Of a stretch of 50,515 bases of DNA, positions 35,341 to 50,411 are shown piece by piece (position 1 is the stretch's first letter; every line of letters starts with the position of its first letter). A program made the translations under genes and the position numbers. The DNA is from Planctomycetota bacterium (lineage in GTDB: Bacteria; Planctomycetota; PUPC01), in NCBI GenBank assembly GCA_043819695.1, contig JBDREM010000360.1, positions 1 to 50,515 of the forward strand, read 5' to 3'. Below the pieces are notes generated by a model, which was given only the letters and a program-made list of their open reading frames with translations, was not told where the DNA came from and ran no database searches.

Positions 35341-37229
35341 CAGAGGGCAAGTACCTCCCTTTGCAGTCTCATATGTTCGCTGATGAGTTCAGACACGGAG
35401 CCCTCATCACCCGATGCCTTTGCCGCTTCGAGTTCTCTTGTGACCGCGCGGATTTTTGTTTGAATGCGTCTTCTCATGAGCGTTCGCACGCAGTCCAGCC
35501 CCGCCTGGGCGCCGTCGGCCCGCGGCTCCGCGCTCACGACACCCGAGACGAGCGACGCCGCCTCAGTGCTCTGGAGCGCCCCGAGCAACTGCTCGCCATG
35601 TACTGTACCGTCGGAATCGTGCGCATCTTTCATCATTTGAAAGAGCGAGCGGAGAGTCTCGTTCGTGAAGTCGCTCGCGGCCACTTCGTCAAAGATGCGG
35701 CCGGCCAGGTCGGGCACGGTCAGGACCGCCTCGATGACGCCAAGCTCGGCGGGGTCGTAGCTGATTGCGGGCCGTGCCGGCTCTTCCGGGGCGCCCGGCC
35801 GGCGGCGGCTTCGCCGCTCGATCTGTGCCAGGCGCGCCCGTACGACGCGATCCTCCAGGTCGAAGGCGTCCGAAAGCTTTCGGACGGCGGCGTCGACGGC
35901 CAATTGCCGCCCGACGGCGTTCGGGATCACGGCGACCAGCCCGAGCACGTCGTCCACCGCCTTGGTCTTGCCGTCGACGGTCGACGCGTCGTGCCGCTGC
36001 GACACGATCTTGATCTTCCGCGTGACCACGTCGTCGCCCGCGTCGAGCGCCTTCACGAACGCATCCGCGCCCTGGGCGGCGATGAGGTCGCAGGGGTCGT
36101 TCCCGTCTTCGAGCGTGACCAGCCGAACGTCGAAGCCTGCGGCGAGGAACTCGCCCGCGCCTTCGTTCAGAAAGAGCTCCATGCTCCGCTCCGCCGCCTG
36201 CTGTCCGGCCGCGTCGGAATCGAACACGACGTCGATCCGTTCGGCGAACCGCCGAAGGACGTGGATGTGCTCGCGCGTGAGCGCCGTGCCGAGCGTCGCG
36301 ACGACGGCCATGCAGCCGTGCTGGTGCGCCATGATCACGTCGGTGTACCCTTCGACGACGGCGGCCTGTTTGTGGTCGACGATGGCCTTGCGCGCCCAGT
36401 TGAGCCCGTAGAGGTTGCGCCCCTTGCTGAAGATCGGCGTCTCCGGCGTGTTGATGTACTTCACCTCGCTGTCGCCCATCGTGCGGGCGCCGAGACCGAT
36501 CACGCGCTCCTGCGTGTCGAAGATCGGGAATATCAGGCGGTCGCGGAACCGGTCGTAGCACGAGCCGTCGTCTCGCCGGATCGCAAGCCCGGCCTTGCAG
36601 AGCACGTCGGCCGGGATGTCGGCGGACTCGGCCGCGCGGATCAGCGCGTTCCAAGAGTCGGGCGAGTAGCCCAGGCCGCACCGCTCCGTCATCTCGTCCG
36701 ATATCCCGCGGGCCTCGATGTATTCCCGCGCTGCCTGGCCCGCGGCGCTCGCCAGTGTCTTCGCGTAGAAGTCGGCGGCTCGGCGGTTCGCGTCGTACAG
36801 GAGCTCGCGTTCGGTCCGCGCCGTCTCCTGGGCCGGGGTGGGCTTGCGCGCCTCCGGGATTTCAATCCCGGCCTCCTTGGCGAGGGTCCGCACGGCCTCG
36901 GGAAACGACACGCGGTCCATTTCCATCACAAAGTGGAACACGTTGCCGCCCTTGCCGCAGCCGAAGCACTTGAACGTTTGCCGCGAGGGCGTCACGATGA
37001 ACGAGGGCGTCTTCTCCTTGTGGAACGGGCAAAGGGCCTTGAAGCTCGCGCCGGTCTTCTTCAGCGAGAGGTACCTGGAAACCAGCCCAACGATGTCGAC
37101 GGAATCGCGTACGCGGCTGATAATGTCTTCAGGTATGAAGCCGCTCAAATCCTGTGCTCTGAGGTAAGCCAAAGGATGGGGGCAGCGACTGCGCCGTGGT
37201 CTCCGACCGCCGGGAAGGCCGAAGGGCAC
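35340..37229 (-). CDS. dnaG: DNA primase
   Basis: Zinc-binding block [37 protein letters not shown], then a TOPRIM block VVEGYTDVI...[10 protein letters not shown]. The stop overlaps the rpoD ATG by 1 nt. The true start may be downstream (TTG at 37148, LSGFIPEDI), because the first ~27 codons are unlike primase. Confidence 0.92.
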
Positions 37230-37348
37230 GCCATGCCAACCGCGCCATTTCCCGGGTCGCCTCCCAAACCCTCTAAAATGTATGACCGGCCAGCCGCGAA
37301 TCTCGCCTGGACTATCCCGCAGGCCAGATAAAGCCCGAGAATTGAAAA

Positions 37349-37377
37349 AGTATAGCGCCGTATTTGGCCCATGTCAA
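37349..37377 (-). promoter_or_regulatory. Sigma-70-type promoter candidate for dnaG-rpoD
   Basis: The minus strand reads TTGACA (37377-37372), a 17-nt spacer, then TATACT (37354-37349). Confidence 0.5.
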
Positions 37378-37536
37378 GAAAACGCGGCGCTTTTCAGGTT
37401 TTCTTGCCCGTTGAACCGCTGGGGTCGGCGGCCTTGCCCCGTGTCCGCGGGCGGCGTCGATCTCGCTCGGAGCGCACATAACGCGCTGCTATACAAGGTG
37501 TTATGCAAACGGGTCTTGCAGGCTGGTGAAAAAGGT

Positions 37537-37595
37537 GCAGGAAGCCGCCGACTTACAAAGCCGGCCTACGGGAACGGCCGTTTCGCGGCGTACTG
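37537..37595. repeat. Copy 2 (inverted orientation) of the dispersed intergenic repeat seen at 27271-27340
   Basis: gcaggaagccgccgacttacaaagccggcctacgggaacggccgtttcgcggcgtactggggctccttg aligns with the reverse complement of copy 1. Confidence 0.8.
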
Positions 37596-37683
37596 GGGCT
37601 CCTTGCACGCCCGCGGTCACCGTTTCTCGCGCCCCTCCTTCCGGCTCGGCCGGCCGAATTTCAAGGCGCCCGCCGGCCGGTCG

Positions 37684-37692
37684 TGCTATAAT
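37684..37692 (+). promoter_or_regulatory. Extended -10 element TGcTATAAT upstream of the lipoprotein gene
   Basis: Read directly, 76 nt upstream of the ATG at 37768. No good -35 is present. Confidence 0.3.
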
Positions 37693-37767
37693 CAGCAGGT
37701 GGCGGATCTGTCCGCCGGACGGATACGGGCGTCGTCAGAGCCCGGGAAGAAACCACAGGAGGAAACA

Positions 37768-38376
37768 ATGGAGCGAGAAGAAAAGTCGGCCTTGTTCTTG
37801 GTGCTTCTTGCTGCGCTCGTGGCGGCCGGTGCGGGCTGCCGCGGCGGCCAGGTTCCGGCGGCTGCCTCCGACAAAGCGCTGGCGGGCGCGCAAATCACGA
37901 TGCTCGATGATTTCGACGGCGCGTTCTCCTGGACGCTCGAGAAGGACTGGGGCGATCCTGCGGCCGTGGAAGCGGCGGCGGGCGCGATGGTCGTCCGGCT
38001 CGAGCCGGGCTCAAACACGAAGAGCACGGTCAGCCGCGCGCTGGCGCCGCCGCGTGACCTCTCGAAGCACAACGCCGTCGTCGTCGACATCACCAGCGAG
38101 CTGAATACCGATTGCCTCGTGGGCCTCGCCCTGATCACCACGGCCGAAGGGACGTTCATTGAGACGCCGTCGGCCGTCGTGCATCCCGGTGCGAACAGGA
38201 ACATCGTTTTCCGGCTCGACGGACGGGCCTTCAAGAGCGCCGTGAGCAACTGGGAGCACAATCAGCCGGCCGGCGACCTTTCGGCCGTGCATAAGGTCAT
38301 ACTGCTCGTCTCGCCGAAGTCGTCCGGTGTGGTCCGAATCGACAACGTGCGGCTGGCCATCCTGCCAAAGCGGTGA
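37768..38376 (+). CDS. Lipoprotein with carbohydrate-binding-module-like beta-sandwich (function unknown)
   Basis: AGGAGG RBS 6 nt upstream. The lipobox is LVAAGAGC. The body ends ...SGVVRIDNVRL, as in CBM-type domains. The ORF-track start at 37282 is an upstream extension through non-coding repeats. Confidence 0.7.
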   Translation: MEREEKSALFLVLLAALVAAGAGCRGGQVPAAASDKALAGAQITMLDDFDGAFSWTLEKDWGDPAAVEAAAGAMVVRLEPGSNTKSTVSRALAPPRDLSKHNAVVVDITSELNTDCLVGLALITTAEGTFIETPSAVVHPGANRNIVFRLDGRAFKSAVSNWEHNQPAGDLSAVHKVILLVSPKSSGVVRIDNVRLAILPKR

Positions 38377-38461
38377 GAACTGTCAGGACGTCGACGACCT
38401 TGACGTTCGTGAGTTCCTTCCGGGATATTCACGGACCCATTGCAGGCGGGGCGTCGCCGGC

Positions 38462-39727
38462 TCAATCTCCCGGCGGCTGTTGGCCGACCACGCAGACGGC
38501 GCCGCACGCCGGGCACTTGGCGCATTTACCCGCATGGGCGGCGGCGGCGCGGAGCTTGGTCCCGCAGGAGGGGCACTCGACGAGGAGCCACTGAGCGGAG
38601 TCCGGCGGCCGGCCCGGCCCGGCGCATTTGGTGCACCGTTCGGTGGCGTCATCGAAGTGATCGGCGCAGAAGGCCTTCCCGCACTGCGGGCAAAGCCGGG
38701 CGTGCGCTGTGCACAGGACCTGCTTGCACGCCGCGCACTGCGAGACGTGGTTGACGCAGACGCGGGCGCCGCACTGGGAGCACTCGAAAGCGCAGTCGGC
38801 ACAGGCGGCGGAGCCGCAGATCGAGCACCGCTGCACGTGCTCTTCGCACAGGGCCTTGTTGCAGCTTGCGCACGTGGCGGCGTGTTCGACGCAGACCGCC
38901 TGGCGGCAGACGGCGCACTGCCGGACGTGGTCGAGGCACACCTGCCGGCCGCACTTCGAGCATTTGATGATGCAGTCGGGACAGCCGGAGTTGTCACAGA
39001 GCGAACAGGTTCCGATGTGGGTCTTGCAGGTAACCTGAGCGCACTGGGGGCACGTGCCGCTGCACGCCTTGCACACGACATGTTCGCACACGGGGCACGT
39101 CCGGGGCTTGCAGAGCAGGCACAGGGATCGCTGGCAGCTTTCGCAGACCACGACGCAGTCGGCGCAGACGGAGTGGCCGTTGACGCAGCGCGTGATGGTT
39201 CCCCTGCGGCCGCGGCAGTTCTGGCACTCTCCCTCTTTCGCGGCGCTCCGTTGGATGTCCGACCAGGCGGAGGGCGAGAAGTCCCTCGGGTCGGTCGGCA
39301 CGAGGCCGGTGTTCTCGTCGACCCATCGCGCGGCCGCGCCGTTCAACGGGCTCTTTGTGTTGTAGCTCTGATAAGCCAGCATCTCGCCGATGCGGATGAT
39401 GAGGTTGAGGAGGGATTCGCCGGCGGCCCAGTGGTCGCCGATGCAGATGGCATGCGGCGCGATGTTCGGATGGAAGACGGGGGTGAGCATTCGGCACTGT
39501 GGCGCCTGGCGGGGGTAACCGAGTGTAAGGTAAATCTCGGCCAGGTGCTCGAGCCGTTCGGTGACGTCGCCTTCGGCGGTCTCGTGGAGGCTTCGGACCT
39601 TGAACTCGATCTGGTACCGGTCGGGCGGGCTGCCGGAGACCCCTCGGACGCGGAAGGCCGGGTGGTCCCGGAGCCCCTCCTTGATCTCTTCGTAGTCGGC
39701 TTGTATCCGTCGGAGTCGAACGCTCAC
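38462..39727 (-). CDS. Ubiquitin-conjugating enzyme (E2/UBC-fold)-like protein fused to a ~245-aa Cys-rich zinc-binding tandem array
   Basis: Residues 1-135 read RLRRIQADYEEI...YQIEF...YPRQAPQCRMLTPVFHPNIAPHAICIGDHW...LLNLIIRIGEML, giving the HPN motif plus a candidate catalytic Cys94. Residues 168-413 hold about 11 tandem 15-aa modules C-x2-C-x4-C-x2-[HC]-x3, followed by a terminal zinc ribbon. The GTG start forms a GTGA overlap with the upstream gene. Confidence 0.8.
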   Translation of the reverse strand: MSVRLRRIQADYEEIKEGLRDHPAFRVRGVSGSPPDRYQIEFKVRSLHETAEGDVTERLEHLAEIYLTLGYPRQAPQCRMLTPVFHPNIAPHAICIGDHWAAGESLLNLIIRIGEMLAYQSYNTKSPLNGAAARWVDENTGLVPTDPRDFSPSAWSDIQRSAAKEGECQNCRGRRGTITRCVNGHSVCADCVVVCESCQRSLCLLCKPRTCPVCEHVVCKACSGTCPQCAQVTCKTHIGTCSLCDNSGCPDCIIKCSKCGRQVCLDHVRQCAVCRQAVCVEHAATCASCNKALCEEHVQRCSICGSAACADCAFECSQCGARVCVNHVSQCAACKQVLCTAHARLCPQCGKAFCADHFDDATERCTKCAGPGRPPDSAQWLLVECPSCGTKLRAAAAHAGKCAKCPACGAVCVVGQQPPGD

Positions 39728-41001
39728 TGCTGCTCGTCCCGGGTTTCTTCCTTCGGCGTCGAAGGGGTCATCTGGAGCTTCAGCGCTCCGTGTTCTTCAA
39801 TGAGCGGGATGAGGTCGGAGACCACGATCGAGAAGCTTATGCCGGCGGCGGTGCCGCGGCCTGCCGTGAAGGTGTTGATCCCGATCAGGCCGCCGTCCTG
39901 CCTGTACAGCCCGCCCCCGCTGTTCCCGGGATTGAGCGGCAGCTGCATCTGGATGATCCGCAGTATCTTCTCGCCCAGGTCGTTGCGCCGTATCGCCGAG
40001 ATGACTCCCTTGCCGTACGACCAGCCCAGGCCGAGCGGATTGCCGACGGCGAAGACGGATTCGCCGATGTTGAGCGTCGGGCTCGAGGCGACTTGGGCGG
40101 TGTCGAACGAGCTCTTGCCCGCCGGGCACGTGAGCAACGCGATGTCGATGCCGGTGGGCGCCCGCCACTCCACCTTCGCCTCCTTCTGCGTGCCGTCCGC
40201 GAAGGTGACCGTTATCGCCGGCGGCCCGCCGGAGAACAGCCCATCGGCCCCGTTGATGACGTGGCGATTGGTGATGATGACCACACGGCCCTGCTGGTTC
40301 GCGAGGATTACGCCGGACCCCGCGGACATCGAGCCGCGCCCGCCGGCAACAATCATCACGTTCGCCCGGATCGCCTTCCGGATAGACTCCGGGATGGTGG
40401 AGGCGTCGTCTATGCCGTAGACCTGGTCGGGCCGGATGAGGCCGGGCGGCTCGAGCGGCATGGTCGTGTCGCGCTGGCTCAGGTAAAAGAGACAGAAGCC
40501 CGCGGCCCATGCCACGATCTCGACCACGCCCACGATGACCGCGGCCGCCGCGAACCCCATCCCCTTCAGGTCGCGGCGCGAGTTGATGAAGCCGACCGCA
40601 ATGGACCCGAGCACGATCGCCAGAAAGCCCGGCACACCGAACGCGAACAGGCCGACGATTGCGCACACGAACGCCACCACCGCCAGAACGCTCAGGCGCC
40701 TCCGGCCCGGCGAGACGACCGGCGACCAGCCGGGCGGCACGACCCGCGGCGGCTGCGGCGGAGCCGGCGTCCGGGCAACGTCCTCCGCAGTGACGACGAG
40801 GTCCGGCTGGGCCCGTCCGGCGGGCGACGCACATTCGTATGCGTGGCAGCGGCCGCTCTCGATCCAGCAATGCTCGTGCTGGATGTGGCCGCAGATCGGG
40901 CAGGACCCAACCGTCTGCCCGGACCGGATGGCCTGCTGGCAGCAAGGACACAACTGGCCCTGCTGCAATTTGCCGGCGACGAACATCTCAGGATTCGACA
41001 T
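39724..41001 (-). CDS. C4HC3 RING/PHD-like finger - TM segments - trypsin-like (S1/HtrA-like) serine protease fusion
   Basis: The N-terminal finger is CPCC-x12-CPIC-x4-H-x2-CW-x5-C-x4-C. Hydrophobic segments follow (LSVLAVVAFVCAIVGLFAFGVPGFLAIVLGSIAV, AAAAVIVGVVEIVAWAAGFCLF). The protease triad context is TNRHV / DIALL / GNSGGG. Confidence 0.8.
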   Translation of the reverse strand: MSNPEMFVAGKLQQGQLCPCCQQAIRSGQTVGSCPICGHIQHEHCWIESGRCHAYECASPAGRAQPDLVVTAEDVARTPAPPQPPRVVPPGWSPVVSPGRRRLSVLAVVAFVCAIVGLFAFGVPGFLAIVLGSIAVGFINSRRDLKGMGFAAAAVIVGVVEIVAWAAGFCLFYLSQRDTTMPLEPPGLIRPDQVYGIDDASTIPESIRKAIRANVMIVAGGRGSMSAGSGVILANQQGRVVIITNRHVINGADGLFSGGPPAITVTFADGTQKEAKVEWRAPTGIDIALLTCPAGKSSFDTAQVASSPTLNIGESVFAVGNPLGLGWSYGKGVISAIRRNDLGEKILRIIQMQLPLNPGNSGGGLYRQDGGLIGINTFTAGRGTAAGISFSIVVSDLIPLIEEHGALKLQMTPSTPKEETRDEQQ

Positions 41002-41046
41002 GTCTGCCCCGATCGGCTGTCCCTGTGAAAAACGTGCCCCCTGCTG

Positions 41047-41775
41047 CTACATGACCACTGTAAACAGGATTATACTGTAAAACAAGCTCAATATCACCGA
41101 GCCATACGCAAGAACTTCGTGCGGCCCCCCGGCCCTCCGCAGCGCCTTGCGGGATCGCCAGAGCCAGATCGGGGCGACGAACACAAGGATGGGGGCCGGG
41201 ACCCCGAGGACGCTGAGCGCGAACAGAACGATTGCCTGGGTGCGGACCCGGCCGAGTTGCGACTCCGACGTGCCCCACGCGCGGTACTCGGCGCTCGTCA
41301 TCGGAACGGGCGACGGGAACCGGGCCTTGCAGAAGCGGCACTTGACGGCCACCGAACGAATGGGTTTCCCGCATCGCGGGCAGGCTTTCTCGTCGCCCCA
41401 TCCGCCCTGCCCGTCGGCCGCCTCGTCCTCCGGCTTCGGCGCCTTGGGCATGAGCTCGCAGCCGTAGGTCGCGCAGCCGCCGATCTCGTCCCAGCACTCA
41501 CGATGATAAGCAGCGCGGCACTCGGAGCAGGAGCAGGCCGTGTCGCCGTGCGCGATTGGCGTGCGGCACACCACGCAGACCTGTCCGGCCAGTTCGCCGG
41601 ACCCGGCCGAGAGCGGCCCCCTTGCCGCCGCGGGCGCTGCATCGGCTGCGGCGCCGTCGGCCGCGGGGACCGTCGCGACCCGGCCGCACTTGGGACATTT
41701 CGCGCGCTTCCCCGCGGCCGACGCCGGCGCCGAAATCCGCTGCCCGCATTTGCAGTTGTAGATGATCTGCATCAC
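41047..41775 (-). CDS. Zinc ribbon - C4HC3 RING/PHD-like finger - zinc ribbon - TM protein (E3-like paralog 1)
   Basis: The finger is CVVC-x12-CSEC-x4-H-x2-CW-x5-C-x4-C. The flanking ribbons are CKCG...CPKCG and CPRCG...CRFC. The C-terminus has hydrophobic helices. The start is GTG at 41775 or ATG at 41772. Confidence 0.75.
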   Translation of the reverse strand: MMQIIYNCKCGQRISAPASAAGKRAKCPKCGRVATVPAADGAAADAAPAAARGPLSAGSGELAGQVCVVCRTPIAHGDTACSCSECRAAYHRECWDEIGGCATYGCELMPKAPKPEDEAADGQGGWGDEKACPRCGKPIRSVAVKCRFCKARFPSPVPMTSAEYRAWGTSESQLGRVRTQAIVLFALSVLGVPAPILVFVAPIWLWRSRKALRRAGGPHEVLAYGSVILSLFYSIILFTVVM

Positions 41776-41799
41776 ACATGTCCCGCGCGCCGCGGCCCG

Positions 41800-42594
41800 C
41801 TACATCGAGCTCGCCGCGATCAGGTTAATAATGATGTACAGAAGGCACACGACAAAGCCAATGATGCCTAGGATTATCCCGGCCGTCGCCATCCCTTTGC
41901 CGGCTATCCTGCCGCGGCTCGCCCTGATCTCCGTTTGCGCGCTCAGGCCCAAGCCGATAGCAATGATGCCGGTGATGACGCCGCAACAGATGAAGGAGGC
42001 GATGCCGAGAATGAGCGAGGCGATCGCCTTGCCGCTCGTGCTCGCCGGCGCCGCACGGGCGCGTCCCGGGCCGGCGGCGAGGAACTCGCCGCAGTGGCGG
42101 CACTTGACGGCGGAGGCGGCGATCTGCTCGCCGCAGAACGGGCAGGGCTTCGTGCCCGCGCCCGCGGCGACGGGCGCCGGCGCCTGAGCAGCGGCCGGCT
42201 TCGGCGCAATCTTCGGCAGCGGCGCGTTCGCGCACGAGGCCGTGCCGCAGCCGCCGTTCGACTGCCAGCACGAATCGTGGAAAGACCGGCCGCACTGTTG
42301 GCAGTTCCGCACCGCCTCGCCGAGACTGATGGCGTTGCCGCATATCGTGCACGTCCTGCCGGCGACCGCGCGGTTGGCCGCCATCTGCTCCGGCAGCCCG
42401 TCGGCGCCCGGCCCGGCGGACAGCGGCTCGGCGGCGGCCGGCTGATGCTCGGGCTCCGGCGAGACGGGCGCGGCGGCCGCATCCGGCACGCGGATCGTGG
42501 CCCCGCAGTCCCGACACTTGCCCGACCGGCCGGCTGCGTCTTCCGGAACGGTGTATTGCTTGCCGCACTTGGGACACTCGACGATGATGCTCAT
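41800..42594 (-). CDS. Zinc ribbon - C4HC3 RING/PHD-like finger - zinc ribbon - TM (DUF4190-like) protein (E3-like paralog 2)
   Basis: The finger is CTIC-x12-CQQC-x4-H-x2-CW-x5-C-x4-C. The flanking ribbons are CPKCG...CRDCG and CPFCG...CRHCG. The C-terminus has two Gly/Ile-rich TM helices. Confidence 0.75.
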   Translation of the reverse strand: MSIIVECPKCGKQYTVPEDAAGRSGKCRDCGATIRVPDAAAAPVSPEPEHQPAAAEPLSAGPGADGLPEQMAANRAVAGRTCTICGNAISLGEAVRNCQQCGRSFHDSCWQSNGGCGTASCANAPLPKIAPKPAAAQAPAPVAAGAGTKPCPFCGEQIAASAVKCRHCGEFLAAGPGRARAAPASTSGKAIASLILGIASFICCGVITGIIAIGLGLSAQTEIRASRGRIAGKGMATAGIILGIIGFVVCLLYIIINLIAASSM

Positions 42595-42733
42595 TAACCT
42601 TCTCCGTTTCCGGCGGACAAAATCGCACTCCGGTGTTGTGTGACCCGGCCCCTACATTGCCGTCGCAGTCTGCGCAAGGATCACCATCTCTTACCCTCCT
42701 AATCCTTGTTTGCGCCCGCGGACGCGCGCCGGG

Positions 42734-44110
42734 CTACGACGCGCCGCGCGAACGCTCCGCATACTCGAGGACCGTCTGCCCGAGCACGATCTGATCGCCG
42801 TCCTTCAGCGGCTGGCGCCGCGCTTTCTTGCCGTTGACGATCGTGCCCGCGGGCGTGCTGAGGTCCTCGATCTCATGCCGGTTGCCCACCTTGCGGATCA
42901 GCGCGTGGCGCGGCTCGACGGCGGGGTCCTTGAACAGATAGACCTCGCACTTGGGCGAGCTGCCGAGCGCCGTCGGGCTCTTGTAGATCACGAACTGCTT
43001 GCCGGCGAGCGGGCCGGCCCGCATGAGCAGCCAGGCGTCCTTCGACAAGTGCTCGACGAGGCCGATCATGAAGCCGGCGGCCACGCCGATGATGCCGAAG
43101 CCGAACGCGCGGCTCATCAGGGCCTGCCCGCCGAGGTCGGTATTGGCGAACAGCTTGATGATCGGCTCGAAGCACATGCCGCCGAGCAGCGCGCCGAGCA
43201 GCCCGCCGAGCAGCCCGTTGATCACGAGCTTCTTGCTGCGGAGTGCGACGCCGTGGCCGAGGCCGACCGAGAGGCCGAACACGCCCCACGCCAGCGAACG
43301 GCCTATGACGAGCGCCATAAACGGCCAGCCGGTCAGCGTCGCGCTGGTCCACATGCCGTCGCCGGCCAACCCCTGCACGATCACCTGGGCGAGGCCGAAG
43401 ACCAGGCCGGCCGGGATGAGCCCGACGAGCCCGCCGGCCGCGGCGATCCCGATGCCCGTGATGCAGCACAGGAAGCCGCGGCGCAGGTTGCGCGACATGA
43501 CGCCGTCGGCCGCGGCGACGCAGCCCGCGATACACGCGCCCACGATGGCGAACGCGAGCAGCCGGGACACTAGCTGCAACGCCGAGGCATCGTCCAAATT
43601 CGGCAACGGTTCCTGGTCGCGGCCCGGCGGAATAGCCCGGACCGACACGCGTTCTGCGAAGAGAATGCGGTTGTCCGCATCCGCCACAAACGCCTGCACC
43701 CGGACAGGCTGGCCGGTCTTCAGCTTCCCGACGCCGTTGACCTCGGCGTACTCGCCGCGGCCTTCGATACGGGTGGCTTGGCTGTCGAGATGAAGCTGAA
43801 CGCCGCGGACGGCGATCACGGTCTGTGCAGTCGGCCGCAGCCCCGGCCACTCGGCTTCCTTGACATACTCGATCTTGCCCCAGACGACGATCGACTCGTT
43901 GAAGAGCGGCTCGAGTACGGCCCACCCGGCGATCCCGCCGATGAGGCCGGCGACGGACAGGAAGAACAAGCTGTTGAAGACGATTCGCCGCCAGAGGCTC
44001 GTCGGCCCGAATTCGCCCATCGGGCGCAGCAGGGCTTGCTGCTCGGCGACAATGTCGTCGATCCTCGGCGAGAACAGCTCGTCGCGGGTGATCCGGATCT
44101 TGTCAGGCAT
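42734..44110 (-). CDS. Polytopic membrane protein with C-terminal FHA (phosphopeptide-binding) domain
   Basis: Several Gly-zipper-like TM helices are present. The C-terminal ~95 aa read ...GSSPKCEVYLFKDPAVEPRHALIRKVGNRHEIEDLSTPAGTIVNGKKA...LKDGDQIVLGQTVLEY, the FHA pattern (G-R/S...S-x-x-H...N-G). Confidence 0.8.
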   Translation of the reverse strand: MPDKIRITRDELFSPRIDDIVAEQQALLRPMGEFGPTSLWRRIVFNSLFFLSVAGLIGGIAGWAVLEPLFNESIVVWGKIEYVKEAEWPGLRPTAQTVIAVRGVQLHLDSQATRIEGRGEYAEVNGVGKLKTGQPVRVQAFVADADNRILFAERVSVRAIPPGRDQEPLPNLDDASALQLVSRLLAFAIVGACIAGCVAAADGVMSRNLRRGFLCCITGIGIAAAGGLVGLIPAGLVFGLAQVIVQGLAGDGMWTSATLTGWPFMALVIGRSLAWGVFGLSVGLGHGVALRSKKLVINGLLGGLLGALLGGMCFEPIIKLFANTDLGGQALMSRAFGFGIIGVAAGFMIGLVEHLSKDAWLLMRAGPLAGKQFVIYKSPTALGSSPKCEVYLFKDPAVEPRHALIRKVGNRHEIEDLSTPAGTIVNGKKARRQPLKDGDQIVLGQTVLEYAERSRGAS

Positions 44111-44212
44111 TGCCTGATCTCCTGTCTACTCTTGCCGGCTGCCCGCGCCGGCCGGCGGGGATGTCGGCTCGGGCGGGCGCTTCGGCGCGACCTCCGGCAG
44201 CACTTGGTTGAT

Positions 44213-45517
44213 TCAGGGCTCGAGGCGTGGAGCGAACTCGACGGCCATGTCCCGGAGGCGCCTGGCCAGTTCGAAGCGCGCCGCGGCCCCGTCATCCTTC
44301 GGCTGCGAGAGCAGGTACTGGGCCTCGTTCACGCACACTTGGGCCAGCCGCGTCTTCAGCAGGTCCAGCTCCTCCGGTAACGTAGCGACGAGGTCCATCT
44401 GCCTGGCGATACGCTCGGCGGACAGGTACCGCTCGGCCATCTTGCCCACGTGGCCCTCCGCCTGTCGGAGCGTCAAGGCGGCGCTGTCCAGCCGCTGCAG
44501 CGCCTCGGCCTTGAACCCTGCGGCCGCTTCGCCCTGATCGCCGGAGAATTCTTGCTGCGAGAGGTCCGTCCGCACGAGCTCGATCCGCTGGGAAGCGCGG
44601 TTCAGCGCGAGCAGCACGGTCGCCAGCTCGCGGTCCAGCCCGTCGCGGAACAGCCCGGCCCGGATGAGGTCCTCGACCTGCTTGCGCTGATCGTTGAGCG
44701 ACCGCCGGAACACGCTGCCGGGCACGAACCCGCCCAGCCAGAACACGACCAAGACGGCGATGGCCCCGAAGATCGCCCACATGGCCAGAGACTTCGCGTC
44801 GGCTCTCGATTCGTCGGGCTCGACCCGCGCCGGCGAGTACAGACGTTCGCGTTCCGGCTCTTCGCGCTCGTCTTCGGCCGCCGCGGCGGCGTCCTGTCCG
44901 CCGGGCGCGGCAGTCTCGAGGTCGTAGCAGAGCTCGCCGCCGATCCAGTAGCGCCGCAGCCGTTCGGAGCGGCCCTCGCGCCAGTAAAAAATCCCCTTCG
45001 CCTCGGAACAGGGGTCGTACACGAGCGCGACGCTGTGCGGGGCGTTGAAGAAGTTGTCCTGTATGAACTGGTCCATGTCGGAGAGGAACACGCCCAGCCC
45101 GGGGTGCGAGTGATACCAGCCGACAATGCGGAGCTCGGGGAAGCGGTCTTCCATCACCTGATGCACGTGCTGCCAGGTCTCGTGGGTGAAGGTGACCTGC
45201 GAGCCGCTGCGGCGTGTCGCCGCGCCCTCGATGACCTCTTCGACCAGCAAGTATGGGCCGCCGGAATCGGTCAGGATTCGCCCGGCCAGCACGCCGCACT
45301 GCTCGACCGACGTGTCGCTGTCCGCGTGGTCCTTGACGGCCTCGAAAGCCTTCTCGGCAACGGCGACGCGATAATCGGCCGGCAGCGAAGGGAAGTCGCG
45401 CGATTCCAGCTCGGCCGCGTCGATCTGGCTCACGTCCGTCTCTGGGGCGTCGGGGGCGTCGTCCGTCTCCGGCGCTTGCTCGTCGCGAGCTTCCTTCTTT
45501 CTCTTCTTCCTTGTCAT
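44213..45517 (-). CDS. JAB/MPN+ (JAMM) metalloprotease with TM helix and long C-terminal coiled coil
   Basis: The JAMM motif is intact: E72 (VEQCGVLAG) ... GWYH136SH138PGLGVFLS146DMD149. A TM helix LAMWAIFGAIAVLVVFWLGGFV follows, and then a helical region of about 170 aa. Confidence 0.85.
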   Translation of the reverse strand: MTRKKRKKEARDEQAPETDDAPDAPETDVSQIDAAELESRDFPSLPADYRVAVAEKAFEAVKDHADSDTSVEQCGVLAGRILTDSGGPYLLVEEVIEGAATRRSGSQVTFTHETWQHVHQVMEDRFPELRIVGWYHSHPGLGVFLSDMDQFIQDNFFNAPHSVALVYDPCSEAKGIFYWREGRSERLRRYWIGGELCYDLETAAPGGQDAAAAAEDEREEPERERLYSPARVEPDESRADAKSLAMWAIFGAIAVLVVFWLGGFVPGSVFRRSLNDQRKQVEDLIRAGLFRDGLDRELATVLLALNRASQRIELVRTDLSQQEFSGDQGEAAAGFKAEALQRLDSAALTLRQAEGHVGKMAERYLSAERIARQMDLVATLPEELDLLKTRLAQVCVNEAQYLLSQPKDDGAAARFELARRLRDMAVEFAPRLEP

Positions 45518-45526
45518 GGGACCTCC

Positions 45527-46741
45527 TCACTCCTCGCCCGTCTCGCCGGCGAGTTCGCCGAGCGCGGCTCGCTCGTCGCCGGCCATAAGGTACCCCACGG
45601 CGCGCAGGCCGCTTCGGCCGACGAGGATGTCGAACGGCGGCAGGCCGATCTCAGCGGGCGTAAGGTCCAGGAAATCGTCCTGGCCGCCGACACTATGGAG
45701 CAGTTGGGGAAAGCGCATCTCGCCGCACGCGGGGCACCGCCCCTGCTCTTCGCTCACCTTCCCCAGCGAAACGAAAACGGTCTCGGCCTCGCCGCACTTC
45801 GGGCATTCGAGTTGGCGGATCACCTCGCGGCTCAGCTCGATGACCGCGTCGGGGCCGAGGTCCGCGCGGGCGCGCGCCAGGAGGCCGCCGAGCGTGATGT
45901 CGCTCGACCGGTCGGGCAGTTCGATCATCTCTCCGAGCGTCTCGTGCGCGAGGCAGTCCTCCTTGCGGGGGTACGACACGCCGTAGACCTCGCCGCTCTG
46001 CCCGTTGATGGTGAGCCCCGCGCCGCCGCGGACCTCGAGGCGGTGCAGGTACTTGAGCATCTCCTGGCACTGGAACCCGGCGACGATGGACGAGATTGTC
46101 GCGGTCGTCGGCGTGTGGCCCTCGAGCATCTCCTCGCGGCTCAACAGGGCGCACGAGCGCCGGGCGTCGAGCATCTGCCAGTCGATCTCGTTCATTGTGC
46201 ACTCGTAGCACGCGCCCAGGCCCGGCCGGAACATCCGCACGACGCCGTCGAGGCGCTCGATGGCGCCGTCGATCCAGGCGCGGCCGACCTTCAGGCAGGC
46301 CCGGTTCACCGCGACGCGCGCCTCGCGGTTGTCCAGGCCGCAGATGACCACGTCGGCCCAGCGAAAGACACCGAGGCCGAGGTCGTGGACCACGTTGCCG
46401 TCGAATGCCCGCGCCCGGGTGCCGGGGTGCATCGCTCTCACCCGCGCCGCGGCGACCTCGGCCTTGGGCTTGCCGATGTCGTCCTCGCGGAACAGCACGC
46501 TGCGCGCCAGGTTCGAGTTCTCGATGCGGTCGAAGTCGGCAATGAACACAGAGCCGATTCCGACGAGCGCGAGGTTCTTGAGGATCTCGTTCCCGAGCGC
46601 TCCGGCGCCGATGACGAGCGCCCTCGAGCGTTCGAGCCGGGCCTGGTCCCACCATTCGATGAGCTCCTGGCGGCTGAAGCGCCCCTCCCCGCAGGCCGCC
46701 TTTCCGAGCTTTATGACGTCGTTCATGCGCCTCCCCGTCAA
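45527..46741 (-). CDS. ThiF/MoeB/E1-like ubiquitin-like-protein activating enzyme
   Basis: ALVIGAGALGNEILKNLALVGIGSVFIADFDRIENSNLARSVLF (nucleotide-binding and Arg-finger-type blocks), then CGLDNREAR and GACYEC. The C-terminus carries a ribbon CPKCG...CPACG. Confidence 0.88.
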   Translation of the reverse strand: MTGRRMNDVIKLGKAACGEGRFSRQELIEWWDQARLERSRALVIGAGALGNEILKNLALVGIGSVFIADFDRIENSNLARSVLFREDDIGKPKAEVAAARVRAMHPGTRARAFDGNVVHDLGLGVFRWADVVICGLDNREARVAVNRACLKVGRAWIDGAIERLDGVVRMFRPGLGACYECTMNEIDWQMLDARRSCALLSREEMLEGHTPTTATISSIVAGFQCQEMLKYLHRLEVRGGAGLTINGQSGEVYGVSYPRKEDCLAHETLGEMIELPDRSSDITLGGLLARARADLGPDAVIELSREVIRQLECPKCGEAETVFVSLGKVSEEQGRCPACGEMRFPQLLHSVGGQDDFLDLTPAEIGLPPFDILVGRSGLRAVGYLMAGDERAALGELAGETGEE

Positions 46742-46765
46742 TGCGACCGGTGGGCGGCTTGGCCC

Positions 46766-47044
46766 CTAGCAACGCTGGCCCGCTGTGATTTCGGCCTGCA
46801 ACCGCACGACGTCCATGTCCTTGACGCCAGCCTGGGCCAGCGTCTGATCGTCGAGCAGTTGGCGGCCCGTCGACTTGTGATGGAACTTGTAGCTCATCAA
46901 CTGTCCGTCGGGGCTGTTTCGCGGCAAGTTCATGCGGTTGACCAGCACGGCGATTATGCGGTTGACCGGAGCGTCGTCCGGCACCTCCGCCGTCTGGCGC
47001 TTGTTACCCGTAGCGTCCCATACCTCGAGCGTTATCATACCCAT
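46766..47044 (-). CDS. Small ubiquitin-like (beta-grasp-sized) protein ending ...EITAG-QRC
   Basis: 92 aa with a GGGAGGAG RBS. It is the first gene of the E1/JAB/E2 operon. Gly89 is followed by a 3-residue tail. The fold itself is inferred from size, pattern and context only. Confidence 0.7.
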   Translation of the reverse strand: MGMITLEVWDATGNKRQTAEVPDDAPVNRIIAVLVNRMNLPRNSPDGQLMSYKFHHKSTGRQLLDDQTLAQAGVKDMDVVRLQAEITAGQRC

Positions 47045-47114
47045 GTGTGGCCTGGCTCCTCCCGCACGGGGCTTGATGCATGGCCCGGAACAGTGTTAGC
47101 GGCAAGTTTTGGCT

Positions 47115-47142
47115 ATTCTAGTTGACCCGTATCTTGTGTCAA
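47115..47142 (-). promoter_or_regulatory. Sigma-70-type promoter candidate for the Ubl-E1-JAB...E2 operon
   Basis: The minus strand reads TTGACA (47142-47137), a 16-nt spacer, then TAGAAT (47120-47115). It lies about 70 nt upstream of the Ubl ATG. Confidence 0.45.
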
Positions 47143-47424
47143 CAGCAAAATGCCGGTCTGTGTAACGGCCGGTTACAGGGGGTCTCGACGACGCGGGCCA
47201 TGGCCCGCCCCGCGAGCGGAGGCCCGTTCCCGCCGATCACGTCGATGCCGTCGGTCTCGACGGAGCGCGCGACGTTGAACGTGAGGGCGATATTGTTACG
47301 CATCCAGAACTTGAGGGGGCTCAGGGTGTCGCAGGCAGGCCGAAAAGGATCGCGGCTAACGACGAGCTAACCGCTTGGCAAAGGCGCGCACCGCGCGGAT
47401 TCGACAATACGGTCGAGCTCGATG

Positions 47425-47907
47425 TTATGCCTTTCGTTTCCTGTTCTTTTTCCCGCGCGAAGATGCCGGTGACTCGCCGTCAATTCGGGCACGGAAAAGT
47501 CGGTAGTGTCGCTTGACTCGTTCAACATAGGCCTCGTCGCCCAACAGAACGTCGTGCGCAAGATCGAGAAGGCTGTCGGCCAACTCGGTTTGGGGGCTCC
47601 CAAGATTAAGGCTTGGCCCGATGAGTTCCGCAATCATCTCCGGATCGTCATCATGCAACCAGTTGGCGTAGAATTCGGGGGACTCCCAGCCCCAAGCAAT
47701 GACGGCCTCCGGCCCCTTGCGAGAGGATGCCACGACATAAAAGAAAACACGTCTGCAGTCACATGCACGTTCATTACAGAACATCTCGCAGAACGCGTAC
47801 TGACCTGGAGGCAGTCCGGTCTTGGATCTATTTCCAAACACGGTGAGGGTTCGCGTTTCCGGCTCTGCAATCTCGGGAAAGAGGTCATGAAAAAGCTGGT
47901 ATGGCAT
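47425..47907 (-). CDS. Hypothetical protein (160 aa), Cys-motif FCEMFCNERACDCRRV, basic C-terminal tail
   Basis: It is the only long ORF here with coherent composition. GC is visibly lower than in the neighbours. I recognise no family. Confidence 0.55.
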   Translation of the reverse strand: MPYQLFHDLFPEIAEPETRTLTVFGNRSKTGLPPGQYAFCEMFCNERACDCRRVFFYVVASSRKGPEAVIAWGWESPEFYANWLHDDDPEMIAELIGPSLNLGSPQTELADSLLDLAHDVLLGDEAYVERVKRHYRLFRARIDGESPASSRGKKNRKRKA

Positions 47908-48101
47908 TCCATTCCTCTGGCATAACCATGTTTATGCTGGTCGGCATAATGCCGCAAGCAACGCTGTTTGCGTCAGATTAGACGGCGGCGAATAATGACC
48001 GAAATGGCCCTCAGGCCATTGGTGGCTAATGACGAGCATGAGATACCGTCCAACGTCCGGTTCAAAGTTGGCGAACAAGATAACCCTCCGGACGGCCGAC
48101 G

Positions 48102-48464
48102 TCAGGTGGGCGAACTGCCGGGCGCCGGCGGGACCAATGGCTCCAGTCGCTCAATCAGTTCCGGGATATGGCGCGTCACAACGGCCCAGATTCGTTCCTG
48201 GCGGATGTCACCGTATTCGTGGGCGAGCACGTTGCGCTGTGCGATGATGGGGCGCCAGGGGATTTCGGGATGCGCTTCGCAGAGGGGCTCGGACACGCGG
48301 CGGGCGGCTTCGCCGATGATCTCCAACGCTCGCTCGACCGCGAGTTGAAGGGTGCGGTTCTTCAAGTAGGCGTCAAGGGCCTGGTGCTTGGTGATTTCGC
48401 GGATCGTCTGCGCGGTGTCGAGCATGTCCCAAAGATGAGCGGCGTCGCGTTCGTCAGGCCGCAT
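48102..48464 (-). CDS. hepT: HepT-like (DUF86) RNase toxin of a type VII/II TA pair
   Basis: The R-x4-H-x-Y motif appears as IIAQRNVLAHEYGDI. The protein is 120 aa and overlaps the upstream nucleotidyltransferase gene by 11 nt. Confidence 0.85.
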   Translation of the reverse strand: MRPDERDAAHLWDMLDTAQTIREITKHQALDAYLKNRTLQLAVERALEIIGEAARRVSEPLCEAHPEIPWRPIIAQRNVLAHEYGDIRQERIWAVVTRHIPELIERLEPLVPPAPGSSPT

Positions 48465-48756
48465 AGAGGATCTTCCGACTGCTCAGGATGGCGTGGCGGC
48501 GAAACGGATTGCGAAGCCCATCTCTTTCAACAAGGTCAACTTCGCGCCCGAAGATCTCACTGAGTTCGTCCATCATCGCAGCGAAGTCAAACAGACTCCA
48601 CTGGGCGTTCTCGGTGAAGCTGACCAGCACATCGACGTCGCTGTCGGGCCGGAAATCGTCGCGAAGCGCAGAGCCAAACAGCGCGAGTTCGACGATCTTC
48701 CACCGCTCACAAAACGCGGCGATGCGGGCCCTGTCCACGTGAATGTCCGGGCTCAT
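48454..48756 (-). CDS. mntA: MntA-like minimal nucleotidyltransferase antitoxin
   Basis: The G-S-x10-12-D-x-D motif appears as LFGSALRDDFRPDSDVDVLV. The ATG at 48756 (MSPDIHVD) is preferred over the ORF-track start at 48792. Confidence 0.85.
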   Translation of the reverse strand: MSPDIHVDRARIAAFCERWKIVELALFGSALRDDFRPDSDVDVLVSFTENAQWSLFDFAAMMDELSEIFGREVDLVERDGLRNPFRRHAILSSRKILYAA

Positions 48757-48848
48757 CGGTCGATCCTCCGGCTTGCCAGGCGAACGCGGCACGCGCCGCC
48801 GACACGATCAATGATAGCCCCCGTACTCGGTCAAATCAAGGCGGGAAC

Positions 48849-50411
48849 TCAATTCTCAGGGCCGTCGCGCTTGCATTCTTCGGCCTTTGGCTTGACGTTG
48901 CGCTTCTCGACGGCGAAAAGGCGGAAGACGATGTCGTCCTTGCGGTCCTCGGCTGTGTAGCTCTTGTCTTCCACGCCGCCGTCGTCGCGCTGGTTCATCC
49001 CGATGCTATAGACGATGCAGTCGCCGTCCATCTGTCTGTATTTCAGCGGCTTGCCCGAGAACGGGTCCAGCAACTTCTCGTCTTGAAGCTCGCTCAGCGC
49101 ATTGGGCCATTTGCCGTTTTCGATGCGACAGACTTCCGCGCTTAGCGCCGTCGCGGCAGCGACAAGGCGCGCCTGGTACTGAATACACTCCAGATCCCAT
49201 CTCGCCCAGCTTGCTGCAATCTTCGCGGTGTCGTCCGATTCTGCCGTCACTCCACGCAGCCTTTGCGTTGCCCTTGCTGCCCGGTCGTGGGAAGGCGCCG
49301 GGAGAGCGTCGTACTCCCTTAGAAAGAACTTTGCTTCATCCATCATGTCGAGGCGGTATGCTCCAGGGCATACGGATACCCACGCCGAGAGCAACCGCAG
49401 GGGCCACATGCGGTCAGGTGAAACCATCATCCGGGCATCGGGCCTGTCCATGAACGCCTGCCACCTGCACCGCCCCGGGAAGTCCTGAGCGACGACAGCC
49501 ATCTGCTCGTTACGATGAACGGCCGATGCCATGCTGAAATGGGGGTGCTTCAGTTGCATCGCAACGTACGCTATCTCAGCCTTTATCATTTCTGTGATGC
49601 TCGTGCTCTCGGACTCCAGCAAGAGCTTGGAACGCAGGGCCCGGAGACTCTCGATACTTGGCGTTGTCCGGCTGAGAGTTTGCTCGATACTCTTGCACAG
49701 GTAACGTCCATTCGATGCCTGAAAAAGCTTCACCGCACACCACGGCTGATTGCGGAGCGACAAGTTGATGTCCACGATGGCTTCGCACGCGTCGAGCGCC
49801 CCTTCCGGCCGGCCCAAGGCCTGCTCGTGCAGGCTCTTCACGCAGAGCGTTCTCGCCGCTTGGCGGGCATCTCCAAGAAAGGCGCTCGCCTGAGACTCGC
49901 GGGTGTTGAAATCGAGGTTGTAGAAACAGCGTCGGTGTTTTCGCGCCGTCGCCAGAAGTGAGAAGAAGGCTCGTTGCTCGTCCAGGAACGTTGCCATCTT
50001 TACTTGCCGTTCCCTGTCGATCGGCTCACCCAGTTCGGGCATGTCGGCCGAGCCGACACAAGGCACGCTCATCTCGTACGCCTCGTCCTCGCCCAGCGCC
50101 GCGAAGGCCGCTTCGTAGAATCGAGCTGCGTTCTTGCCATTGACGGAGGCGCCGAATTCTTTCTTGAGGTAGTATGTGTCGGTGGGCAGGCCGCGCCGGT
50201 CAAGTTCCGCGAGGATCTCTTCGAGGGCGGCCTCGCCACGACGATTGGTGTTCCAGACCCAGCCGGCAAAGAGCAGGACGCAGAGCGCGAACACTACCGA
50301 CAGCGCGCACAGCGTCCGAAGCGGCCACTTGAGCCATCTCAGCCACCGCCATCTCGATTTCCTGTGTCCCTCCGATGGGCTCGTCGAATTCGCGTCCGCG
50401 TTCATTGGCAT
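48849..50411 (-). CDS. Hypothetical membrane-anchored protein (520 aa) with pseudopilin-G-like C-terminal motif
   Basis: The N-terminal TM helix is LRTLCALSVVFALCVLLFAGWVW, followed by a helical body. The C-terminus DPFSGKPLKYRQMDGDCIVYSIGMNQRDDGG resembles the DPWG-x-PY...Y-x-L-x-S-x-G-x-D-G end of GspG-type proteins. GC is lower than in the core. Confidence 0.6.
   Translation of the reverse strand: MPMNADANSTSPSEGHRKSRWRWLRWLKWPLRTLCALSVVFALCVLLFAGWVWNTNRRGEAALEEILAELDRRGLPTDTYYLKKEFGASVNGKNAARFYEAAFAALGEDEAYEMSVPCVGSADMPELGEPIDRERQVKMATFLDEQRAFFSLLATARKHRRCFYNLDFNTRESQASAFLGDARQAARTLCVKSLHEQALGRPEGALDACEAIVDINLSLRNQPWCAVKLFQASNGRYLCKSIEQTLSRTTPSIESLRALRSKLLLESESTSITEMIKAEIAYVAMQLKHPHFSMASAVHRNEQMAVVAQDFPGRCRWQAFMDRPDARMMVSPDRMWPLRLLSAWVSVCPGAYRLDMMDEAKFFLREYDALPAPSHDRAARATQRLRGVTAESDDTAKIAASWARWDLECIQYQARLVAAATALSAEVCRIENGKWPNALSELQDEKLLDPFSGKPLKYRQMDGDCIVYSIGMNQRDDGGVEDKSYTAEDRKDDIVFRLFAVEKRNVKPKAEECKRDGPEN

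Follow-up and report, generated by a model that had tools for sequence, protein, structure and literature searches.

A conserved bacterial operon with the predicted components of a membrane-associated ubiquitin-like conjugation cascade

Rare RING-type ubiquitin ligases (E3s) in bacterial operons for ubiquitin-like proteins (Ubls) were predicted by Burroughs, Iyer and Aravind (Mol Biosyst 2011), as cited by Chambers et al., who present the RING-containing operon families as uncharacterised and give their predicted role as antiviral defence. A 2014 review places related operons in Actinobacteria, Planctomycetes and Acidobacteria. In this study, we analysed one such locus, an eight-gene operon on the minus strand of a 50,515-nucleotide (nt) stretch of DNA from a Planctomycetota bacterium (NCBI GenBank assembly GCA_043819695.1, contig JBDREM010000360.1, positions 1 to 50,515; hereafter the window). 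As with the operon class of 2011 in the summaries given by these sources, a Ubl, an activating enzyme (E1), a conjugating enzyme (E2) of the UBC type, a JAB peptidase and C4HC3 RING proteins with transmembrane segments are brought together in one operon, and no difference from that class is shown for this locus. Because of this literature on RING-containing Ubl operons, and because all three of its fingers fall in the Pfam family Prok-RING_1, the locus is a member of an operon class that was predicted in 2011, is widespread and annotated, and is experimentally untouched. A preliminary description, made from the sequence of this DNA, had read the genes as a complete membrane-tethered Ubl/E1/E2/RING/JAB conjugation operon, a reading now supported by profile, structure and neighbourhood tests; its caution about novelty and its reference to a prediction by the Aravind group were likewise well placed. 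We consider it probable that the operon encodes a conserved and reversible Ubl-conjugation cascade acting at the cytoplasmic face of the inner membrane.

Several better known systems resemble the locus in part. The operon of Caldiarchaeum subterraneum and Asgard-type archaea (Nunoura 2011; Hennell James 2017; Fuchs 2018) has the same five functional classes in one cluster; the JAB peptidase of the window is closest to a Caldiarchaeum protein (6fjv), and in both systems the tag has a C-terminal extension that needs removal. In contrast to the archaeal operon, the tag here is YukD-like, ends in Ala-Gly and is not matched to ubiquitin by phmmer, the RING protein comes in several paralogues, membrane anchors are found on the RING, JAB and a dedicated FHA protein, an HtrA-like protease and a Cys-repeat tail on the E2 are present, and the hosts are bacteria. 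We do not count the locus as an archaeal-type system. The ISG15-like antiphage system BilABCD, for which a demonstration of conjugation by way of E1 and E2 thioesters is reported, also has separate genes for a Ubl, an E1, an E2 and a JAB-type deubiquitinase, but it lacks the RING E3, FHA protein, protease and membrane anchors of this locus. A PADLOC search returned only BilD, as a weak match (5.8e-10) to the adenylation core of the E1, and no BilA, BilB or BilC; with RING proteins present as well, the locus does not belong to BilABCD. Type II CBASS (cyclic oligonucleotide-based antiphage signalling system) likewise relies on chemistry of the E1 and E2 type and has a JAB peptidase for undoing conjugation. 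However, its Cap2 is a fused E1-E2, the conjugated protein is the CD-NTase itself, and it has neither a separate Ubl nor a RING protein, whereas E1 and E2 are separate genes here and no CD-NTase domain was found in the operon or its flanks; the CBASS-type PADLOC matches were generic E1-E2 ones on the same adenylation core, and membership in type II CBASS was rejected. By functional analogy, the locus may also be likened to the eukaryotic membrane ligases Hrd1 and Doa10 of endoplasmic-reticulum-associated degradation (ERAD) and to the RING-CH ligases of the MARCH family, in which polytopic or anchored RING ligases pair with a soluble UBC E2 on the cytosolic side of a membrane. The C4HC3 ligand pattern is that of RING-CH and PHD-type fingers, although the spacing differs (the last pair is C-x4-C), and unlike in the eukaryotic systems no proteasome or Cdc48 partner is found here. 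Among the bacterial Ubl systems compared, RING-type E3s occur only in this kind.

The operon consists of eight co-directional open reading frames (ORFs) running from 47044 down to 38462, which together amount to a kit of a tag, an E1, an E2, three membrane RING proteins, a de-tagging protease and a membrane scaffold. In the order of transcription, its features are as follows.

47115 to 47142, minus strand: sigma-70-type promoter-like site, TTGACA-16-TAGAAT, 11/12 matches, ~70 nt ahead of the start codon of the Ubl gene
46766 to 47044, minus strand: Ubl precursor, 92 residues (Pfam YukD, 1.5e-8, 35.7 bits)
45527 to 46741, minus strand: E1-like Ubl-activating enzyme, 404 residues as ORF (ThiF, 1e-51)
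44213 to 45517, minus strand: JAB/JAMM metallopeptidase, Rpn11-like (JAB, 3.6e-11; Prok-JAB, 2.6e-7)
42734 to 44110, minus strand: FHA membrane protein with six transmembrane helices (FHA, 5.6e-12; Yop-YscD_cpl, 6.5e-10)
41800 to 42594, minus strand: membrane RING protein 1 (Prok-RING_1, 4.1e-8; DUF4190, 1.2e-15; Zn_ribbon_4)
41047 to 41775, minus strand: membrane RING protein 2 (Prok-RING_1, 1.6e-9)
39724 to 41001, minus strand: RING-protease (Trypsin_2, 3.6e-24; Prok-RING_1, 3.1e-7; DUF4190, 3.2e-8)
38462 to 39727, minus strand: E2 of the UBC type (UQ_con, 1.2e-7, 31.9 bits)

All eight products match the expected Pfam families, and YukD, ThiF, JAB, Prok-JAB, FHA, Prok-RING_1, Trypsin_2 and UQ_con all score above their gathering cut-offs (27 bits for YukD, 27 bits for UQ_con and 29.1 bits for Prok-RING_1, PF14446), which bears out the products assigned gene by gene in the preliminary description, including the S1-type protease that it expected to find among the domains and that lies in the third RING protein. 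The genes and coordinates are as it gave them, as are the intergenic gaps of 24, 9, 102, 139, 24 and 45 nt (5' to 3', for the ORFs as listed) and the final 4-nt overlap of the RING-protease stop with the E2 start; only the first gap is likely to change. The listed E1 start is a TTG at 46741, and an ATG at 46726 is preceded by the Shine-Dalgarno-like GGGGAGG (46737-46731), so that the E1 probably starts at this ATG, giving a gap of 39 nt. A promoter-like site stands where a promoter had been proposed ahead of the operon, and it shares the top score among sites in the region 37000-48500, in which eight promoter-like sites were observed against 1.1 expected from shuffles. In a hydropathy scan the Ubl, E1 and E2 gave no hydrophobic spans, whereas transmembrane-like spans were found in the JAB protein (one), the FHA protein (six) and each RING protein (DUF4190-type), in agreement with the proposal that most accessory components carry transmembrane helices.

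The sequence of the tag in the window ends in ...EITAG followed by QRC, in agreement with the ending AG-QRC described before. Its β-grasp fold is an assignment made through its Pfam family, and the earlier naming of this protein as a Ubl therefore held in so far as it scores above the cut-off for a family of β-grasp type, with weaker Pfam matches to Rad60-SLD and ubiquitin, but has to be qualified in that the protein is YukD-like rather than ubiquitin-like. By itself the Ubl had no phmmer match in the PDB, ubiquitin included; with the profile of its family, residues 59-82 align with ubiquitin residues 46-69, which gives an equal tail length to the terminal Gly in a match that is weak, local and inflated by polyubiquitin repeats. 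In 42 loci from several phyla the homologues are 56-96% identical to the window Ubl, and ...EITAG is invariant in all 42. About ten of the homologous ORFs end exactly at the Gly of this motif and most others carry 1-4 further residues; the few that extend further are among ORFs defined from stop to stop. In Isosphaeraceae, which include the cultured Aquisphaera giovannonii, the Ubl is fused right after ...EITAG to a zinc-ribbon/DUF4190 membrane anchor (locus L070, 2052-2744; locus L084 of A. giovannonii CP042997.1, 6778-7485), and the tag of these bacteria would be produced as a membrane-tethered precursor. The invariant ...EITAG, the ORFs that stop there, the short variable tails and the Isosphaeraceae fusions imply cleavage after the Gly, such that the mature Ubl would end in ...EITAG and QRC would be a removable tail. 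A β-grasp Ubl with a C-terminal Gly available for activation is a feature of the operon class, with which the YukD match and the terminal Gly of the window protein agree.

For the E1, described previously as a ThiF/E1-like adenylating enzyme, the best solved relatives in a sequence comparison with the PDB are UBA1 and UBA7 (2e-29), ahead of ThiF (6e-18) and MoeB (1.6e-14), and the NEDD8 and SUMO E1s likewise outscore ThiF and MoeB over the adenylation domain. That domain is followed by a C-terminal CxxC...CxxC zinc ribbon and a further C-terminal domain, and the motifs GxGxxGNE, DNReAR and CYEC are conserved in the family together with C196 and C312/C315/C335/C338. Cys196 lies 16 residues after CYEC at the crossover-loop position expected for the catalytic Cys, for which it is a candidate. 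These comparisons bear on the possibility that the E1 and Ubl form a sulfur-carrier or cofactor module of the ThiS/ThiF or MoaD/MoeB type that stands beside membrane proteins by chance. The NCBIfam ThiF and MoeB models do match the E1, all far below their cut-offs, but the higher scores against UBA1 and UBA7, the co-conservation of a UBC E2, RING fingers and a JAMM peptidase with the E1, and the finding of no thiamine or molybdopterin genes nearby in the window all speak against it, and we disfavour such a module as highly improbable.

The E2 consists of two distinct halves. Its UBC domain (residues 1-160) contains the HPN motif at residues 86-88, Cys95 and SPLN at 126-129, with the sequence FHPNIAPHAIC around the first two, and in an alignment of 121 family members H86, P87, N88 and C95 are invariant and the SPLN motif is kept. 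The start of the protein is supported by homologues that begin MSVRLRR. phmmer aligns the protein with UBE2C (3.7e-7) such that the two HPN motifs coincide and Cys95 falls on the catalytic Cys of the eukaryotic enzyme. An AlphaFold2 model of the E2 has a mean predicted local distance difference test score (pLDDT) of 92.7, and its N-terminal 160 residues matched UbcH5, Ube2K, Ubc13 and other eukaryotic E2s in Foldseek with a probability of 1.0 and target-normalised TM-scores of 0.65-0.69. Since both Foldseek and phmmer match eukaryotic E2s, the N-terminal part of the protein lies within the UBC fold, and the HPN-type oxyanion motif and catalytic Cys that the preliminary description had recognised are in place, as in the operon class; a fold other than UBC had been set beforehand as an outcome that would speak against the reading. 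A second Cys of the UBC core, Cys78 (in ...APQCRM...), is also invariant in all 121 members. The other half (residues 166-421; 38462-39231), on which the preliminary description is silent, has 50 Cys in 256 residues, arranged as 11 tandem 15-residue units of C-x2-C-x4-C-x2-[HC] and a terminal MJ0042-type zinc ribbon. This pattern is kept across the family with a varying number of repeats, and the region is modelled at a pLDDT of ~98; it matched no Pfam family even at E-values up to 10 and nothing in a PDB sequence search. Possibly, it forms a rod with roughly one zinc site per unit.

The three membrane RING proteins have Prok-RING_1 bit scores of 33.5, 38.0 and 30.7, a family that is said to go back to the 2011 study of these operons. 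Their eight-ligand fingers were reported earlier to have the same spacing, and this is exactly C-x2-C-x12-C-x2-C-x4-H-x2-C-x6-C-x4-C (C4HC3) in all three, a spacing that recurs unchanged in 150 of 192 homologous RING-bearing ORFs of other loci. The fingers of the window match the pattern that a 2024 review gives for prokaryotic RINGs, C4HC3 with a longer spacing in the last pair of ligands. RING protein 1 is composed of an MJ0042-type zinc ribbon, the finger (residues 82-121), a second zinc ribbon and a DUF4190 hydrophobic anchor, and RING protein 2 of a zinc ribbon, the finger (residues 67-106), another zinc ribbon and two C-terminal hydrophobic spans. In the third protein, the RING-protease, the finger (residues 18-57) precedes DUF4190 spans (residues ~103-175) and a trypsin/HtrA-like domain (residues ~228-400) that is without a PDZ domain, matches the NCBIfam Do family (HtrA-type) at 3.8e-35, and has a triad of H247, D287 and S361 that is conserved in the family. 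Homologues of this protease in Myxococcota and Acidobacteriota have a simple CxxC...CxxC ribbon in place of the RING, and they have three well-separated transmembrane spans with an Arg-rich loop between the second and third. Because of these three spans and this loop, the protease domain is probably located across the membrane from the zinc or RING domain, likely in the periplasm; since the hydrophobic region of the window protein is partitioned less sharply, its topology is taken from these homologues.

The JAB protein comprises a peptidase domain (residues ~50-190), one transmembrane-like span (residues ~244-266) and a poorly conserved C-terminal region of 165 residues that matched no Pfam family even at E-values up to 10. 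Every catalytic residue of the JAMM site (E72, H136, H138, S146 and D149) is present in the window and conserved in the family, as the preliminary description had stated for the window, and an intact metal site of this kind is expected of the operon class. In a PDB search the Rpn11-like protein of Caldiarchaeum, 6fjv, scored best (1.6e-9), followed by Rpn11 and CSN5; the Caldiarchaeum protein is the enzyme of the cited paper on Rpn11-mediated ubiquitin processing.

The FHA protein, previously called polytopic, has six transmembrane helices in its AlphaFold2 model (pLDDT 91; predicted TM-score, pTM, 0.85), at residues 47-69, 172-205, 209-249, 261-290, 293-320 and 331-355, followed by the FHA domain at residues 359-452. 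A β-domain of ~100 residues between the first and second helices is predicted to lie outside the cytoplasm and the C-terminal FHA domain inside it, and the positively charged loops agree with both termini being cytoplasmic. The Foldseek matches listed were all to FHA domains, with OdhI and GarA at TM-scores of ~0.9, and none was to the six-helix part; among them a Derlin-, rhomboid- or Hrd1-like fold for this protein found no support. The canonical phosphothreonine-binding residues (Arg in β3-β4, Ser-Arg in β4-β5, Asn in β6-β7) are absent from this FHA domain, in which, relative to GarA, Arg is replaced by S384, Ser by E399, Arg by P400 and Asn by A421; conservation within the family is at least 90% for S384 and P400, and E399 and A421 were read from the window and the family consensus. 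Because these four positions are substituted, the domain is probably a phospho-independent interaction module and is unlikely to read phosphothreonine.

The properties of the FHA protein and of the tag could also be accommodated by a system in which no conjugation takes place. The Ubl would then be a non-covalent adaptor similar to YukD in type VII secretion, the FHA, protease and RING proteins would make up a membrane or secretion complex, and the E1 and E2 would have some other role. In favour of this view, YukD, the Pfam family with the best match to the Ubl, belongs to the WXG100 secretion system, and a second match of the FHA domain is to the cytoplasmic part of YscD, a protein of the type III secretion system. 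A lack of phosphothreonine-binding residues is also what is seen in scaffold-type FHA domains. However, the operon has no secretion ATPase or other secretion component, the invariant C-terminal Gly of the Ubl, with its variable, removable tails and ubiquitin-like tail register, points to C-terminal activation, and the catalytic residues of the E1, E2 and JAB peptidase are strictly conserved. We therefore regard a secretion-type arrangement as improbable and conjugation as the better account of these genes.

The E2 family is large, with at least 1399 clusters at 90% identity, some of which are labelled ubiquitin-conjugating enzyme E2 by NCBI or JGI, and the closest relatives of the window E2, which has no exact sequence match on record, are from uncultured Planctomycetota. 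A scan of ~185,000 species genomes (one genome per species) found E2 relatives in 203, spanning Planctomycetota, Riflebacteria/Ozemobacteraceae, Victivallales, Verrucomicrobia, Sumerlaeota, Myxococcota and Acidobacteriota. To assess synteny, the six-frame ORFs of 81 distinct loci were searched with the domains of the window, and 43 of these loci had enough upstream sequence. In 34 of the 43, from Planctomycetota, Riflebacteria, Myxococcota, Acidobacteriota, Verrucomicrobia and Sumerlaeota, the Ubl, E1, JAB, FHA membrane protein, transmembrane RING, protease and E2 were all found on the strand of the E2, and the order of these seven component types was the same in the loci inspected. The genes are thus co-located and co-conserved in one neighbourhood, as in the operon class, and the preliminary description, which had named a lack of co-conservation in related genomes as a result that would count against it, stands on this point. 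The called-gene tables of four loci (L001, L084, L085 and L086) confirm the layout, including the 4-nt protease/E2 overlap. A cultured and fully sequenced carrier is A. giovannonii, with the operon at ~3.662-3.671 Mb of CP042997.1.

The same comparison bears on the proposal that the operon serves antiviral defence in the manner of Bil or CBASS-Cap2. During infection, phage or host proteins would then be tagged at the membrane, with specificity of recognition coming from the expanded set of RING paralogues. Such a role agrees with the antiviral prediction of Chambers et al. for uncharacterised operon families with Ubl, E1, E2, RING and deubiquitinase genes. The patchy distribution (203 of the genomes scanned) would also fit it, as would the variation in the transmembrane RING genes, of which a locus has between 1 and 9, most often 2, and four partial loci have none. 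In a neighbour-joining tree of the UBC domain the loci are grouped mostly by family-level taxon with a few cross-phylum placements, so that some transfer between phyla, as might be expected of a defence cassette, is set against a tree that largely tracks taxonomy. Conservation of the components argues the other way, as Ubls from different phyla share 56-96% identity with that of the window and the E2 core hardly varies. High conservation of this order is unusual for genes engaged in an arms race.

The surroundings of the operon are similarly divided in what they suggest. In the window, DnaG, RpoD and GatB lie on one side, and on the other, ~1 kb upstream of the operon promoter, is an overlapping toxin-antitoxin-like pair on the minus strand, consisting of a HepT-like RNase (48102-48464) and an MNT-type nucleotidyltransferase (48454-48792). 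This pair, and an integrase and a methylase near a Riflebacteria locus, are the kind of neighbours that a defence system might have. On the whole, however, the flanking genes vary between loci and are mostly housekeeping or metabolic, not defence islands, in the window and in L001, L084, L085 and L086. PADLOC, moreover, gave generic similarity only, to the E1 and (weakly) the JAB protein, with no matches for the Ubl, E2 or RING proteins, no assigned Bil or CBASS system and no named defence system. Defence is for these reasons an unlikely reading of the operon, if one to be kept in view, and a cascade devoted to membrane or envelope proteins is the reading that we follow below.

Some further observations concern the neighbourhood itself. 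The G+C content directly upstream of the operon (47001-50000) is 0.57-0.61, against 0.67-0.70 within it, and this stretch may be a separately acquired segment; ORFs at 47425-47907 and 48849-50411 within or overlapping this upstream region matched no Pfam family. A gene for a small DUF2752 membrane protein is found directly 3' of the E2 in 22 of 69 loci with downstream sequence (for example, L001 11437-11877, L084 14609-15091 and L086 10903-11394), and tblastn found none in the window. Directly upstream of the Ubl, five to seven loci have a gene for a protein of ~350 residues that carries a zinc ribbon of the MJ0042 type at its N-terminus as well as a double zinc ribbon and transmembrane spans (L018 2214-3299; L085 2352-3395) and that has no counterpart in the window. 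In 7-9 loci, most of them from one family (L068 13978-16437 and related Pyrinomonadaceae loci), a Ser/Thr protein kinase gene follows the operon at a distance of a few kb, which may reflect shared ancestry rather than a functional link.

From the domain identities, the catalytic residues, the UBC and FHA folds and the conservation of the operon observed here, we infer the chemical steps, topology, targets and biological role of the proposed cascade. The Rpn11-like JAB peptidase would trim the 92-residue pro-Ubl after ...EITAG, and the soluble E1 would adenylate Gly89 and take the Ubl onto its crossover-loop Cys, for which Cys196 is the candidate. The Ubl would then be handed to Cys95 of the soluble UBC-type E2, and the three membrane-anchored C4HC3 RING proteins would dock the charged E2 and direct transfer of the Ubl to lysines of membrane-proximal targets, from which the same JAB peptidase could remove it. 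The six-helix FHA protein would most likely serve as a phosphorylation-independent scaffold or substrate adaptor. The third RING protein, being membrane-spanning with an HtrA-like protease that is probably periplasmic, could link tagging in the cytoplasm to proteolysis in the envelope.

Several points weigh against this interpretation. The Ubl is YukD-like and not ubiquitin-like in sequence, and the only YukD protein that, to our knowledge, has been studied is not conjugated. Its C-terminus after trimming would be Ala-Gly, not Gly-Gly. The catalytic Cys of the E1 is assigned by its position, the present data indicate no substrate, and the topology is drawn from hydropathy, the positive-inside rule and one AlphaFold2 model. 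The range in RING copy number and the passage of the cassette across phyla would suit a defence system as well. In addition, no biochemical or genetic study of any member of the class was found in the literature searched, up to mid-2026.

Provided that the cascade exists, the role that we would put forward, at roughly even chances, is a regulated turnover or quality control of proteins in the envelope and membrane; antiviral defence would be a minority prospect, and the remainder falls to something else. Proteostasis or regulation at the membrane or envelope is favoured over defence because the tag and E2 are highly conserved, the flanks are housekeeping genes and PADLOC found no system. A bolder and rather doubtful extension of this idea, by analogy with eukaryotes, is that the operon encodes a self-contained tag-and-degrade machine of the membrane, a bacterial counterpart of ERAD-type membrane ubiquitination. 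In such a machine the anchored RING E3s, together with the soluble UBC E2, would attach the unusually conserved Ubl to proteins of the inner membrane or envelope, the non-phospho FHA protein with its six helices would receive the marked substrates, and the transmembrane RING-HtrA protein would perform or trigger proteolysis across the membrane. Were this the case, membrane RING ligases working with HPN-type E2s would have arisen in bacteria, and the zinc rod formed by the Cys repeats would be a new kind of E2 appendage.

The operon is the most complete Ubl machinery known in bacteria that is still without an experiment, and its presence in a cultured planctomycete, A. giovannonii, provides an organism in which to study it. 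Other handles for such work are the probable cut after the Gly of ...EITAG, the candidate residues of the E1 (C196), E2 (C95), JAMM site and protease triad, and the likely topology of the membrane proteins. If conjugation is demonstrated, this would be a case of full tagging by E1, E2 and RING E3 at the membrane of free-living bacteria, and it would bear on the origin of the eukaryotic ubiquitin system as well as on the use of protein tags by bacteria without proteasomes.

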